This document shows, in pieces, positions 36,750 to 59,125 of a stretch of 64,000 bases of DNA. The notes beneath the pieces were generated by a model, which worked only from the letters and a program-made list of their open reading frames with translations, did not search any database and was not told where the DNA came from. The stretch is taken from positions 142-64,141 of the forward strand of contig CAZAAH010000003.1 in NCBI GenBank assembly GCA_964483475.1. The letters are read 5' to 3'. The DNA is from an uncultured Candidatus Saccharibacteria bacterium (GTDB lineage Bacteria > Patescibacteriota > Minisyncoccia > Minisyncoccales > Staskawiczbacteraceae). The position numbers and the translations under genes are program-made. How positions within the stretch are numbered: the first letter of the stretch is position 1; every line of letters starts with the position of its first letter.

Positions 36750-36835
36750 CTTAGCTACGAAATACGAATTTTGCACGAATTTACGAAAACGTTTTCGTAT
36801 ATTCGTATATTTTCGTATTTAGTAGCCTAATGAAA
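36750..36835. repeat. about 80-bp palindromic intergenic element (GCTACGAAATACGAATTTT...TTTTCGTATTTAGTAGC)
   Basis: Read directly. Family members at 53458-53503, 56160-56233, 58722-58800 and 59030-59112, with a diverged copy at 57757-57845. Confidence 0.65.
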
Positions 36836-36841
36836 TCTAAA

Positions 36842-37261
36842 TTATGAATTGCTCTTGGGGCGCTTGGTTCCGTATCTCGACCTCCCCTGTTTTCTGTTTT
36901 CAACACCGGTCGTATCCAAAATTCCCCTAACAATGTGATACCTTACTCCTGGCAAATCCTTAACCCTGCCACCCCTGATCAAAACCACCGAGTGCTCCTG
37001 TAAATTATGTCCTTCGCCCGGAATATATGCCGTAACTTCCATGCCATTTGAAAGTTTCACTCTGGCTACTTTTCTCAAAGCCGAATTTGGTTTTCTTGGA
37101 GTTTGGGTAAAAACTTTAATGCAAACCCCTCTTTTAAATGGAGAATGATAATAAGAGGGCCGATTTCTCAAGGCGTTAAAACCAAAAGCCAAGGCAACTG
37201 TTTTCTTGCGCTTTTTCGCCGTTTTCCTGTTTCTTTTAATTAATTGGTGAATGGTAGGCAA
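36842..37261 (-). CDS. rpsL: 30S ribosomal protein S12
   Basis: [13 protein letters not shown]...[11 protein letters not shown]. Confidence 0.9.
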
Positions 37262-37403
37262 CGAAGTTGAAAGTTTATAAAGTTTGTAAAGTTATAAAGT
37301 TCGTCGGCTTGATGAACTTTATGAACTTGATAACTTTTAACTCAATGAAATAAGCGCCTTTGCGCTCACTGATAAATGTAACAAATATTCTAAGGTGTGT
37401 CAA

Positions 37404-38045
37404 CTACAACCCCGTTATCAGATGGTAAAAAATTTCCATAATTGAACTAATTCCCTGCAAAAATCCAAAGAAAATCAAGAAAATCAAAATGAAAATTCCG
37501 TACTGCTGCAAAAATGTTTTAATCTGTAAAAATCCGTCTGGCACGAAATTAAATAATATCCACGAACCATCCAGCGGAGGCACAGGGATTAAGTTAAACA
37601 GAGCAAGCATTATGTTGGTTTTTATTATGATTTCAAAATAAATTTTTGCTATTGGATAGGCGGTAAAAAAATGATAAGGAATAAATCTCGCAATTATCCC
37701 AAAAAATAAAGCAAGGGCAATATTTGAAAGGGGCCCGGCGGCCGCAACCTTCAAAGATCCCCACTTTTGGTCCCTCAAGTTGTAAGAGTTAACGGGGACC
37801 GGCTTTGCCCAACCAACGATAGGACCAGAAATTCCAGATCTTAAGTAAGAAAAAACCAATATCAAGGGCAACAAAATAGAACCAAAAATATCTAAATGCT
37901 TTAATGGGTTCAAAGTTAACCTGCCAGCATATTTTGCCGTGGGGTCTCCCAGTGAATTAGCAACACTTCCATGAGCCAACTCGTGAATAATAACCGAAAA
38001 AAGCAAAACAACTAAATAAAAAATTGTAATAGTTATGTCAACCAT
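37404..38045 (-). CDS. site-2 protease family (M50) zinc metalloprotease
   Basis: HELAHG motif, multiple TM segments. Confidence 0.75.
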   Translation of the reverse strand: MVDITITIFYLVVLLFSVIIHELAHGSVANSLGDPTAKYAGRLTLNPLKHLDIFGSILLPLILVFSYLRSGISGPIVGWAKPVPVNSYNLRDQKWGSLKVAAAGPLSNIALALFFGIIARFIPYHFFTAYPIAKIYFEIIIKTNIMLALFNLIPVPPLDGSWILFNFVPDGFLQIKTFLQQYGIFILIFLIFFGFLQGISSIMEIFYHLITGL

Positions 38046-38166
38046 TAACTATTTATAACAGGTATTGTAAAATAATGGAAGAACTGATATAAGTGTAGTT
38101 ATAAAGTTTAAAGTTATAAAGTTTATAAAGTCTAAAGAAATTTTTAATTTTAAGGTTTCAATTTTT

Positions 38167-38352
38167 ATGGAAAAAGTTTGTTCTATTTGCGGCAAAAAAT
38201 CAGAGATGGGAGGATATTTGGTAAAACTCCGAGGAAAATTCAACCCAACGAAAAAGAAAAGGAGATACCCAAATCTTCAATGGACTAGGCTTGCTTCTGG
38301 CAAGAGGGTTTTAGCTTGTACAAAGTGTATAAAATCTTTTTCTAAAATATAA
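38167..38352 (+). CDS. rpmB: 50S ribosomal protein L28
   Basis: MEKVCSICGKKSEMGGYL...RYPNLQW. Plus strand. Confidence 0.7.
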   Translation: MEKVCSICGKKSEMGGYLVKLRGKFNPTKKKRRYPNLQWTRLASGKRVLACTKCIKSFSKI

Positions 38353-38355
38353 ATT

Positions 38356-38429
38356 CGGGCTGGAGTATGCCGGTAGTACGCGCCCATGGGGTGGGTGTAG
38401 ACTGGGTTCGATTCCCAGCAGCCCGACCA
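38356..38429 (+). tRNA. tRNA-Pro (anticodon GGG) with encoded CCA
   Basis: Manual fold: acceptor CGGGCTG/CAGCCCG, D-stem GTAT/GTAC, anticodon stem CGCCC/GGGTG with loop ATGGGGT, T-arm CTGGG-TTCGATT-CCCAG, ending ACCA. 74 nt. Confidence 0.7.
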
Positions 38430-56152: not shown

Positions 56153-56233
56153 TAATTGTGCTACGAAATACGAATTTTATACGAATATACCAAACCGTTT
56201 TTCGTATATTCGTATGTTTTTCGTATTTCGTAG

Positions 56234-57754
56234 CTAAATCTCAATAAATTTTTGTATTGCTTTTTTCATTTTTCCTTCAATCTCTTCGGCGATGTCTCGT
56301 TTTTCTTTCAAGTCTTCCAATAATTCTCCGTGCAAGTCTTTAACATACTCTAAAAGGTCGGCTTCTACTTTTTGGATTTGTTCCGGTTGGAATTTGTCAA
56401 AGTATCCGTTCAAAGCGGCGTACAAAACCAAAACCTGCTCCTCAAAAGGCATGGGGACCAGGTCGGTTTGCTTTAAGACTTCCGAAATAATCCTGCCCTT
56501 GTGGATTTTTTCCCTGGTTTCCTGGTCAACGTCGGAAGCAAACTGGACAAAGGTTTGCAATTCCCTGAACTGGGCCAGCTGAAGCCTCAACTTGCCGGCC
56601 ACCTTTTTCATGGCTTTGGTTTGGGCCGAAGACCCCACTCGTGAAACTGACAAACCAATGTTCAAAGCCGGCCTCACCCCCTGGTAAAATAAATCAGACT
56701 CAAGGTAAATCTGGCCGTCGGTAATGGAAATGACATTGGTGGGGATGTAGGCCGTCACGTCGCCAAGCTGAGTTTCAATGATGGGGATGGCGGTCAACGA
56801 GCCTCCGCCGTTTTCTTTTGAAAGCTTTGCCGCACGCTCAAGTAGCCTAGAATGCAAATAAAAAACATCGCCCGGATAGGCTTCCCGGCCCGGCGGCCTC
56901 CTCAAAAGCAGTGAAATCTGACGGTAGGCCCAGGCGTGCTTTGATAAGTCGTCATAAATAATCAAGGCGTCTTGCCCTTTGTCCCTAAAATATTCTCCAA
57001 TGGCGCATCCAGCAAACGGGGCCAAGTACCAAAAGGCGGCCGGGCTTGATGCTGAGGCCGAAACCACGATGGTATAGTCAAGCGCGCCGTTATTTTTTAA
57101 CGTTTCAACTATTTTAGCCACCTTTGATTCCTTTTGGCCGATAGCAACATAAATACAAACTGTTTTTTTGCCTGATTCCCTTCCCTGGTTGATAATCATG
57201 TCCAAAACGATGGCTGTTTTTCCCGTCTGGCGATCCCCAATAATCAATTCCCTCTGTCCCCTGCCAATAGGGATCATGGCATCAATGGCTTTGATACCCG
57301 TGTGCAAGGGCTGGTTGACCGATTCCCGAGCCAAAACATCGGGCGCGTTGTTTTCCAAAAAGTTAAATTTCTTTTTATCTTTTTCAGAAAAAATCGGCCC
57401 CTTGCCATCCAGAATATTGCCCAGGGAATCAACCACCCTTCCTAATAACGGCTCTCCCACTCGAATCGAAAGAATTTGTTTGGTCCTTTTTACCGTCTGC
57501 CCAGATTTAATATGCTGGCTATCCCCCAAAACCAAGGCTCCCACCACATCTTCTTCCAAGTTCAACACCACCGCCCGAATTTTTTCTTTGTCAGTCTCAA
57601 CAACCAAAACTTCTTGGCTCTGGCAATGTGAAAGCCCCGATATTTTCAAGATTCCATCTCCCACTTCCAACACCTTCCCAATTTCCTCCCATTCGGGACT
57701 CTCTTTATAGCCTTCAATCTGTTGTTTTAATTTTTCAATTATTTCTTGGCTCAT
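56234..57754 (-). CDS. atpA: ATP synthase alpha subunit
   Basis: GDRQTGKT P-loop. Confidence 0.95.
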
Positions 57755-57847
57755 TTATTCGCGGTATCGATTCTAATATACAAATCCTACTAATGATACG
57801 AATTTCGTTATTGGTATTATTGGTACATTAGTATATTGGCATCGATA

Positions 57848-58219
57848 TTATGAAAATATATTATTCAGTTTTTTCATAAGTGAAAAATCCAATTGCTTTT
57901 CGTTGTTAACTACTATCTTCACCCCCGCAATTAAATCTGGGTTGATTTTTTCTTCAACAACATCATGTTTCTTCAAAAAACCTTTAAAAGATTCTTTTTT
58001 TGTTTCTCTTGCCATTTCAAAAATAATTTTCCTACCACCAGTTTTTTTTAAAAATAACATTTCCGCTAATGAAATAATTTCTTTTGATTTTTTCAGATCT
58101 CCATTTTTTTTCAGAAGTTTTAAAAAATTATCAACAAGTTTTTTTTGTTGACTTTCGGACTTTTTTTCTGAAACTAAATCCACCAGCGCTTTAGCATAAT
58201 CTTTTGGTTTATGTTTCAT
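57848..58219 (-). CDS. atpH: ATP synthase delta (OSCP) subunit, short
   Basis: Position and size. Weak similarity. Confidence 0.65.
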   Translation of the reverse strand: MKHKPKDYAKALVDLVSEKKSESQQKKLVDNFLKLLKKNGDLKKSKEIISLAEMLFLKKTGGRKIIFEMARETKKESFKGFLKKHDVVEEKINPDLIAGVKIVVNNEKQLDFSLMKKLNNIFS

Positions 58220-58712
58220 TTTCTATGGTCTTCACCGCTTTGCTTATAAGCGCTTCATCAATATCTTTTGGCTTTAATTCAACCGTTTTTATGATAAATT
58301 TCTTTACTAACTCAACCGCCTGGCTCGAAACCAGTTTTTTGGCTTCTTCTTTTTGCCTTTCATAACTTAACTGAACTTGCTTCATTAGTTCTACCTGCTT
58401 TTCCTCCGCTTTTTTCTGCAGCGATTGCCCCAATGCTTTTGCTTTTTCTTCGGTCTGCTTAATGAGAATCATTGATTCTTGTTCTGCCTCCCGCAACTTT
58501 CCCCTGGCAATACCATCAACTTCCTTGAGCCGAATATCCGCCTCTTTTGCCTTTTCCAGGCCCTCGGTTATCCTTTTATTGCGCTCTTTGATGATGGCCA
58601 GTAGGGGTTTGTATACAAAAGTCCTCAAGATAAGCAGGAGAATAAAAAAATTCACCGCCTGGCTCAAAAAAAGCTTCCAGTCTATGCCAAGTTGTCCCAG
58701 TAAACCCTCCAT
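58209..58712 (-). CDS. atpF: ATP synthase Fo subunit b
   Basis: N-terminal TM plus long charged helix. Confidence 0.8.
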   Translation of the reverse strand: MEGLLGQLGIDWKLFLSQAVNFFILLLILRTFVYKPLLAIIKERNKRITEGLEKAKEADIRLKEVDGIARGKLREAEQESMILIKQTEEKAKALGQSLQKKAEEKQVELMKQVQLSYERQKEEAKKLVSSQAVELVKKFIIKTVELKPKDIDEALISKAVKTIENET

Positions 58713-58794
58713 TAACTAAATGGCTACGAAATACGAATTTTTTACTAATATACGAATTTTCGTATATTAGTATCCTTTCGTATTTCGTAGCAAA

Positions 58795-59025
58795 TTATGC
58801 TACGAACTTAATAATCAGTGCGATGACCAATGAATAAATGGCGATGGCTTCGGCAAAAGCATTTGCCAAAATCATAGACGTTTGAACTTTGGTTTCGGCT
58901 TCAGGATTTCTGCCAATTGATTTTACGGCCGTTGAACCAATAAAACCAATTGAAACGGCCGGGGCTATTGTCCCTATGGCAATGGCTCCCACCGTCGCCC
59001 ATAAACGAACTTGATCGATATCCAT
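58795..59025 (-). CDS. atpE: ATP synthase Fo subunit c
   Basis: Two TM helices; conserved carboxylate is the E in [13 protein letters not shown]. Confidence 0.9.
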
Positions 59026-59125
59026 GAGTTTCTCTACGAAATACTAAATTTTACGAATATACCAAATCTTTTTTTCGTAAATTCGTATGTCTTTCGTATT
59101 TCGTAGCCTAAAATATTAATATTAA

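Follow-up and report, generated by a model that had tools for sequence, protein, structure and literature searches.

Word-built palindromes between atp and ribosomal protein genes of a Patescibacterium as the likely gene-less form of a GxxExxY hairpin cassette

Small non-coding multi-copy elements with inverted termini, such as ERIC/IRU, Correia/NEMIS, RUP, and BOX, are often co-transcribed with flanking genes, and some affect mRNA stability or are substrates of RNase III. In Escherichia coli, repetitive extragenic palindromic (REP) consensus units of 35-40 nt are arranged in bacterial interspersed mosaic elements (BIMEs), and heterocystous cyanobacteria reportedly carry heptanucleotide tandem repeats, the short tandemly repeated repetitive (STRR) sequences ascribed to Mazel and colleagues in 1990. 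Two further systems are closer in build to what is described here. One comprises REP doublets forming hairpins (REPINs) together with a REP-associated tyrosine transposase, or RAYT (Bertels & Rainey 2011, PMC3116915). The other is the rRNA intervening sequence (IVS): that of the Coxiella burnetii 23S rRNA is 428-444 nt long, with a 28-bp terminal stem and the S23p open reading frame (ORF) in its loop, and RNase III cuts it mid-stem with no re-ligation (PMC4990558). In the rRNA genes of candidate phyla radiation bacteria, short insertions lacking an ORF are numerous at IVS sites, and IVS protein (IVP) ORFs also occur (PMC11270868). We analyzed a 64,000-nt stretch of contig CAZAAH010000003.1 (hereafter, the window), in which palindromes built of TACGAA words occupy gaps between genes of the atp and str operons. 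Judged by AtpA, whose nearest named relatives are from Candidatus Staskawiczbacteria (79-87% identity), the host is a Staskawiczbacteria-like Patescibacterium. It is our moderately confident view that the palindromes are the gene-less, non-autonomous form of a hairpin cassette that is widespread in Patescibacteria.

Almost all of the window genes are on the minus strand. Members of the TACGAA family, identified in part with a covariance model built from 12 copies (R1), were assigned to the following sites.

36754-36826, rpsL (S12)/rpsG (S7) gap: full TACGAA palindrome, a solo without an ORF (direct reading, model R1, fold, Pfam matches of the flanks)
56160-56234, atpA/atpG gap: full TACGAA palindrome (direct reading, model R1, fold)
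58723-58791, atpE (c subunit)/atpF gap: full TACGAA palindrome (direct reading, model R1, fold)
59034-59106, atpB (a subunit)/atpE gap: full TACGAA palindrome (direct reading, model R1, fold, alignment A3)
53466-53501, minus strand, atpD/atpC gap, 10 nt ahead of the atpC ATG: lone A-rich arm, GGCTGCGAAATACGAAATTTTACGAATATACGAAAA in gene sense
53167-53188, minus strand, after atpC and abutting the next ATG: possible degenerate T-rich arm, TGTTTTTGTACGTTTTCGTATC in gene sense, an uncertain assignment made from sequence only

The four full TACGAA/TTCGTA palindromes that an earlier note on this DNA had placed between these genes are thus real, with their ends refined to the positions above, and its half-copy between atpC and atpD consists of one arm only. 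Its gene labels were also correct: Pfam supports S7, S12, EF-G, and the a, c, b, delta, gamma, beta, and short epsilon subunits of ATP synthase, and AtpA was assigned via its relatives. The statement that nearly every gap of the atp operon is occupied was too strong, as there are three full copies and one arm, atpF and atpH overlap, and a 93-amino-acid ORF fills the atpG-atpD gap.

The TACGAA palindromes are a real, non-chance family. The 14-mer CTACGAAATACGAA, allowing up to two mismatches, is matched nine times in the window against 0.5 expected, a count reached in 0 of 100 shuffles, and the R1 hits in the window are exactly the four full copies (62-89 bits, E <= 3e-10); the candidate arm at 53167-53188 was not detected by R1. 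The rpsL/rpsG copy scored 80-83 bits on both strands, with a predicted RNA fold of -31.2 kcal/mol (z = -7.9). The corresponding values are 81-89 bits and -38.8 kcal/mol (z = -12.2) for the atpA/atpG copy, 83-86 bits and -36.8 kcal/mol (z = -9.8) for the atpE/atpF copy, and 62-78 bits and -26 kcal/mol (z = -8.4) for the atpB/atpE copy; the lone arm does not fold (z = +1.4). Solos fold as single stems, and as extragenic inverted doublets they are able to form a hairpin. Their stems are AT-rich (GC 0.29-0.32, the window being 40% G+C), and no T-run follows the word hairpins. Terminator and promoter scan hits in the atp region were at the chance level, with none at the elements. In an Rfam search with gathering-score and E-value cut-offs only tRNAs passed; for the elements it yielded chance matches of 29-30 bits to plant miRNA hairpins, well short of the cut-off, and no rRNA was found in the window. 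The atpA/atpG copy begins right after the atpA stop codon (TAG followed by CTACGAAA), and 8 nt remain between its end and the atpG ATG. In the atpE/atpF copy, the third word pair is the compensated variant TACTAA/TTAGTA. Alignment A3 revealed that the atpA/atpG and atpB/atpE copies have in common both a derived fourth word, TACCAAA, and a TGTnTT spacer, which suggests that copying occurred within the operon.

The gene-bearing partner was found through the same 14-mer. Two loci fetched by it alone have one arm on each side of a ~400-nt insert encoding a small protein of Pfam PF13366 (PDDEXK_3) and NCBIfam TIGR04256 ("GxxExxY protein"). Arms with the window 14-mer and 7/11/8 word spacing, which is also that of the atpA/atpG copy, surround GxxExxY genes in L072, L087, L043, and L127 (L numbers denote fetched loci). 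A further 80 metagenome loci were fetched by GxxExxY protein alignment only and pooled with the earlier ones to give 59 unique genes. Inverted flanking arms beating all 20 shuffles were present around 51 of the 59, most of which had been fetched by protein similarity; shuffles served as the control for arm complementarity since all loci share the same words across their flanks. Several of the remaining eight genes have one arm.

Working from left to right, a cassette consists of an arm of four TACGAA-type words, the ~125-amino-acid GxxExxY gene, and the inverted arm, ~470 bp overall (cassettes range over 448-491 bp, solos over 66-110 bp). The arm sequence is (G)CTACGAAATACGAA-N-TACGAA-TA-TACGAA, and the word-to-word distances of 7, 10-11, and 8 nt in both cassette arms are identical in the window copies (alignment A3); the window palindromes and the cassette arms are the same sequence family. 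The left arm begins at, or overlaps, the stop codon of the preceding gene, and typically 11-30 nt separate this arm from the ORF start. The right arm usually follows the ORF stop by 0-7 nt and usually ends within about 8 nt of the next ATG. Thirty-eight of 44 cassettes are co-oriented with both neighbors and none is antisense to both. They occupy about 30 distinct host junctions, of which rpsG/fusA and pilT/pilC are recurrent, and all copies lie between protein-coding genes. When whole cassettes were folded as RNA, the left and right arms paired with each other in all 14 that were tested.

Some arrangements depart from this order. In the L140 cassette (1076-1640), built on the word TACGGA/TCCGTA, the left arm is present three times in tandem ahead of the ORF and the right arm once. 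In L127, a different, 120-nt palindrome (3769-3888; fold -46.6 kcal/mol) interrupts a GxxExxY pseudogene, and hairpin elements therefore nest in one another. The lone arm at 53466-53501 of the window has the layout of a cassette left arm ahead of a GxxExxY ORF. The gene after it, atpC (53217-53456), encodes an epsilon subunit of only 79 amino acids, the beta-sandwich domain alone, and lies between this A-rich arm upstream and the possible degenerate T-rich arm downstream, which is the usual position of a cassette ORF.

The solos of a contig carry the word variant of that contig's cassette. When 39 cassettes were ranked by similarity to a solo, the same-contig cassette took ranks 1, 2, 3, 3, and 11, albeit in a small sample; apparent solo/cassette pairs in L178 and L037 were excluded from the ranking because the arm was shared by both. 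L072 harbors a second, divergent GxxExxY paralogue whose flanking arms each have four CGCTGA words, and the same contig contains a solo of that word. Similarly, in L127, whose AtpA is 87% identical to that of the window, AACGAAT words make up both the arms of a GxxExxY pseudogene and a solo between atpE and atpF. The divergence of the GxxExxY protein follows the word variant of the arms, and in L072 and L127 pseudogenized ORFs are decaying in place between their arms. Variant words (ACTAA, ACAAA) are common to the two arms 12 times among cassettes and eight times among solos, against 2.7 and 1.9 expected from shuffling. In the R1-fitted alignment, 92.8% of cells were paired and there were 147 double changes against 51 in shuffles, linker positions between words included, but both strands of each copy were entered and the alignment was fitted to the model, so these figures lean towards structure. 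The words are more conserved than the spacers (alignment A3).

The family, for which the earlier note had set confinement to the window as a refuting condition, extends well beyond it: an exact 14-mer scan over species-representative genomes yielded at least 119 loci, and R1 found 48 solo elements in 40 searched sources covering many Patescibacteria lineages. Word-built elements of the same architecture account for about half of the individual 14-mer matches among those listed, and the matches listed span Nomurabacteria, with several near-identical copies, Saccharibacteria, Doudnabacteria, Sungiibacteriota, Staskawiczbacteria, Nealsonbacteria, Parcubacteria, and one metagenome-assembled genome of Bacteroidia. 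A full GxxExxY cassette with TACGAA-type arms is present in L043 (Bacteroidota). Solos elsewhere are at unrelated junctions, such as ftsE/ftsX, rnc, and pil genes. Three loci outside Patescibacteria (L022, L030, and L081, from Acidobacteriaceae, Aequorivita, and Dokdonia) contain ACGAA-type arrays of 7-8-nt words that are tandem, not inverted.

Nor is any atp junction consistently occupied in six relatives (AtpA 79-87% identical). Their atp junctions have another word family, a TACGAA-type solo at a different junction, no spacer, or inserted small genes, and the occupancy of orthologous junctions thus turns over among relatives. The genes inserted in the atp operon include an NYN nuclease in L126 (11894-12385), three ORFs including a ParE toxin set in L125 (12648-13643), and a 145-amino-acid ORF in L127 (14297-14734).

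The function of GxxExxY has been listed as "Unknown", with multiple transfers (PMC3424549), and our literature search found no link of GxxExxY to repeats. Across 36 homologues, residues E36, D74, E84, and K86 never vary. The AlphaFold model is confident (predicted local distance difference test score 92.5) and has a PD-(D/E)XK fold; Foldseek returned only generic PD-(D/E)XK relatives (Cas4, lambda exonuclease, splicing endonuclease, and Hjc, TM <= 0.54). Solved structures gave no sequence match, and a search of viral_contigs for phage carriage gave no GxxExxY relatives.

A second ORF family, 23S_rRNA_IVP (PF05635), occurs in cassettes of the same build. None of the ORFs of this family in the fetched loci is within rRNA; each is placed between protein-coding genes and is bracketed by inverted word arms, with a copy-specific word. 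These ORFs, and the RNase III gene of the window, are located as follows.

L177 8970-9368 and L201 4288-4647, and also in L173, L199, L171, L195, L145, and L074: PF05635 (four-helix-bundle) ORFs bracketed by arms
Window 5947-6639, minus strand: RNase III gene with catalytic and dsRNA-binding domains (Pfam PF14622, PF00636, and PF00035; NERLEFLGD motif)

The window RNase III gene has a word-built hairpin in its own leader (6640-6704), and in L038 (Staskawiczbacteria) the RNase III gene (536-1225) directly adjoins a TACGAA solo (442-524).

TACGAA is one of several families in the window with the same build, in which an A-rich array of 6-7-nt words is followed by its complement. Palindromes of other words are found at ribosomal protein, SWIB, tuf, and fusA junctions, and no ORF partner was identified for the non-TACGAA word palindromes of the window. 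The remaining features are listed below.

25073-25162, 26864-26943, and 47210-47290: palindromes of the TAGAA (TAGAA/TTCTA) family, from spacer reading in gene sense
37264-37338, and also 38102-38137: AAAGTT (AAAGTT/AACTTT) family, from spacer reading
6640-6735, 33296-33361, 36176-36271, and 47462-47524: other word-built palindromes or arrays, TTAGAA/TTGGAA words among the variants
7143-7178, 12758-12787, 23343-23368, 28211-28232, 29029-29056, 30305-30326, and 55166-55198: examples of one-armed word arrays before start codons
54884-55165, atpG/atpD gap: 93-amino-acid ORF without a Pfam match, preceded by an AAAACTT word array
57755-57847, atpH/atpA gap: separate weak palindrome of CCAATA/ACTAAT words (fold -17.7 kcal/mol, z = -2.4; R1 22-23 bits over 57765-57847, E about 0.02-0.05)

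The last of these had been taken for a diverged relative of the TACGAA copies (57757-57845) but does not belong to the family, being built of other words and scoring level with unrelated terminator hairpins under R1. One-armed A-rich arrays of ~7-nt words lie directly ahead of the starts of most genes, including many ribosomal protein genes, and Shine-Dalgarno-like motifs are very few by a crude motif count over longest-ORF starts; translation initiation in this host may largely proceed without Shine-Dalgarno pairing. Just upstream of atpB, and following a strong promoter-like site (60435-60407), is a tRNA-Gln-like gene (59866-60372) whose T-loop is apparently split by an insert. The insert contains an intact tRNA-Gln(CTG) at 59944-60015, with a perfect 20-nt inverted repeat on its flanks, a GIY-YIG endonuclease ORF at 60018-60263 (Pfam E = 2.6e-12), and a 37-nt GC-rich double hairpin in two copies.

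The best reading is that the window palindromes are REPIN-like or miniature inverted-repeat transposable element (MITE)-like, or ORF-less IVS-like, hairpin elements: parasitic-looking DNA and not dedicated operon regulators. They would spread or be homogenised as DNA and, by analogy with REPIN-RAYT, the likeliest agent would be the GxxExxY nuclease, with the word arrays or the extruded hairpin as its substrate. Sitting in the few bases between a stop and the next co-directional start, they would be tolerated in operons because no coding sequence is interrupted. Each solo in the polycistronic atp and str RNAs is predicted to fold into a stem of roughly 29-33 bp, and the window RNase III would probably cut these stems as 23S rRNA intervening sequences of the same build are cut. 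A by-product would be the division of the operon RNA a short way ahead of each start codon. A broader proposal is put forward tentatively, and as a whole it is somewhat less than probable. GxxExxY proteins would be the enzymes of a previously unrecognised REPIN-RAYT-like system, in which each lineage recognises its own heptamer word arms and maintains gene-less hairpins in Patescibacteria, Bacteroidota, and possibly DPANN archaea. The GxxExxY and 23S_rRNA_IVP cassettes would jointly form a general class of which rRNA IVSs are a special case, namely operon invaders that bring their own RNase III-cleavable stem, whereby the host transcript is cut and not disrupted.

Several observations weigh against these proposals. 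The analysis revealed no transposition intermediates, no polymorphism between empty and filled sites, and no nuclease activity, and mobility, the role of the nuclease, and RNA cleavage are what we infer. The 64-kb window has no GxxExxY gene. The IVP cassettes have word arms without the nuclease, so GxxExxY may not be needed for the arms at all. The relation could run either way, with solos as what is left of decayed cassettes or as sites that receive ORFs, and among solo loops there is only one long-loop case with a possible ORF remnant, which resembles the GxxExxY C-terminus. In a strand test of 30 copies, the sense and antisense folds were equally stable and both polarities of A-rich and T-rich spacers occurred with no consistent bias, and there is thus no evidence for RNA-specific selection. 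That the window RNase III, acting in trans, cuts the roughly 30-bp operon-RNA stems is probable by analogy only. Finally, no target-site duplication is associated with the elements: direct repeats flanking 67 of them were at chance for k = 2-6. The earlier note, which had named such duplications among the things to look for, offered a small MITE family as one explanation; the multi-copy nature beyond the window and the arms shared with GxxExxY cassettes support it, but the lack of a target-site duplication means that this is not a classical MITE.

It is possible, but unlikely, that the palindromes came first, having spread by slippage and palindrome correction or by another enzyme, and that selfish ORFs (GxxExxY, 23S_rRNA_IVP) home into the loop, the solos being empty target sites. 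The presence of two unrelated ORF families between word arms would then be expected, as would the many word families of the window without a known ORF partner and the preponderance of solo loops too short for ORF remnants; PD-(D/E)XK homing endonucleases also exist, and GxxExxY has a weak fold match to one, I-Bth0305I (TM 0.33-0.42). However, protein divergence tracks the arm word variant as if ORF and arms travel together, and the decay of ORF-bearing pseudogenes in place and the solo loop resembling a GxxExxY C-terminus also count against this reading.

We regard as improbable that these are host regulatory hairpins that set the ratios of ATP synthase and ribosomal protein cistrons via RNase III processing or 3'-end protection, a mechanism proposed for REP/BIME, the nuclease link being secondary. 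Such a role would account for the filling of the spacer just upstream of start codons, for very stable stems with covarying arms, and for leader structure that could matter where Shine-Dalgarno sequences are few, and RNase III is present. Yet occupancy is unconserved at every atp junction in the six relatives (absent, another word, or inserted genes), the same element is at unrelated junctions in other genomes, and both strands fold equally well. The role in mRNA processing or stability that the earlier note proposed therefore survives as a possible side effect of long stems and an RNase III in the window, but not as the reason for their placement.

Protein-binding sites or transcription signals acting at the DNA level (operators of a regulator that binds repeated words, nucleoid sites, terminators, or promoters) are very improbable. 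Words more conserved than spacers, with a fixed 7/10-11/8 spacing, could fit a multimeric binder, but the linkers between words covary too, placement is unconserved, the hairpins have no U-tract, promoter- and terminator-like hits were at chance, and ordinary terminators, in which runs of A and T border a G+C-rich stem core, are present elsewhere in the genome. Chance or locally generated simple-sequence hairpins without relatives elsewhere can be virtually dismissed even in a genome whose spacers are full of heptamer-word arrays, as the 14-mer, word order, and spacing recur in many lineages and around one gene family, and the nine window matches far exceed expectation.

Neither the gene-bearing partner of this hairpin family nor its IVS-like build seems to have been reported before. 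They provide a concrete, testable context for GxxExxY, a very common protein family of unknown function, and link the GxxExxY and IVS protein families through one cassette architecture. This suggests that rRNA intervening sequences belong, as one case, to a wider class of hairpin elements in the protein-coding operons of ultra-small bacteria. Regular-looking intercistronic hairpins in compact genomes, we caution, need not be regulators. If RNase III cuts the elements, they would shape operon mRNA architecture in organisms that seemingly use few Shine-Dalgarno sequences.

Among known systems, intrinsic terminators were rejected on their AT-rich stems and the lack of a following T-run, and TIGR-Tas arrays are tandem guide arrays, unlike the isolated hairpins here. 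STRRs similarly have word arrays of 7-nt period in intergenic DNA, but they are set apart by their description as tandem arrays, not paired inverted arms around a gene. The REP/BIME elements of E. coli are also extragenic palindromes inside operons, able to affect upstream mRNA stability; they differ in sequence, to which ours is unrelated, in size, in architecture (four words per arm here), and in partner gene, and the elements here are placed beside start codons, not after the stop codons of operon-distal genes. Like MITEs, the solos are short, non-coding, and multi-copy, and have terminal inverted repeats in common with a longer gene-bearing element; unlike MITEs, they have no target-site duplication and no DDE transposase partner, and the whole element is two arms.

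The likeness to rRNA IVSs is closer in that terminal inverted repeats form a stem of ~28-30 bp around a small ORF, PF05635 being one of the two ORF families here, and total size, short ORF-less versions, and sporadic distribution are also similar. The elements here, however, are in intercistronic spacers of protein-coding operons, not in 23S or 16S rRNA helices, their commonest ORF is GxxExxY, and their arms are built of repeated words; RNase III cutting is a feature of the IVS and would extend to our elements by inference. Compared with REPIN-RAYT, the partner is a ~125-amino-acid PD-(D/E)XK protein, GxxExxY, and not an IS200/IS605-type tyrosine transposase, with no RAYT seen beside any arm. 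The arms are arrays of four 6-7-nt words rather than individually palindromic REPs, and the elements are mainly inside operons and abut start codons. In both systems, nevertheless, short extragenic inverted doublets are predicted to form hairpins in single-stranded DNA or mRNA, many gene-less copies are present per lineage, and a small enzyme gene lies between inverted copies of the same repeats with no target-site duplication. In both, too, the repeat variant is specific to the enzyme lineage, as indicated here, in a small sample, by the same-contig ranks, the CGCTGA words of L072, and the AACGAAT words of L127.

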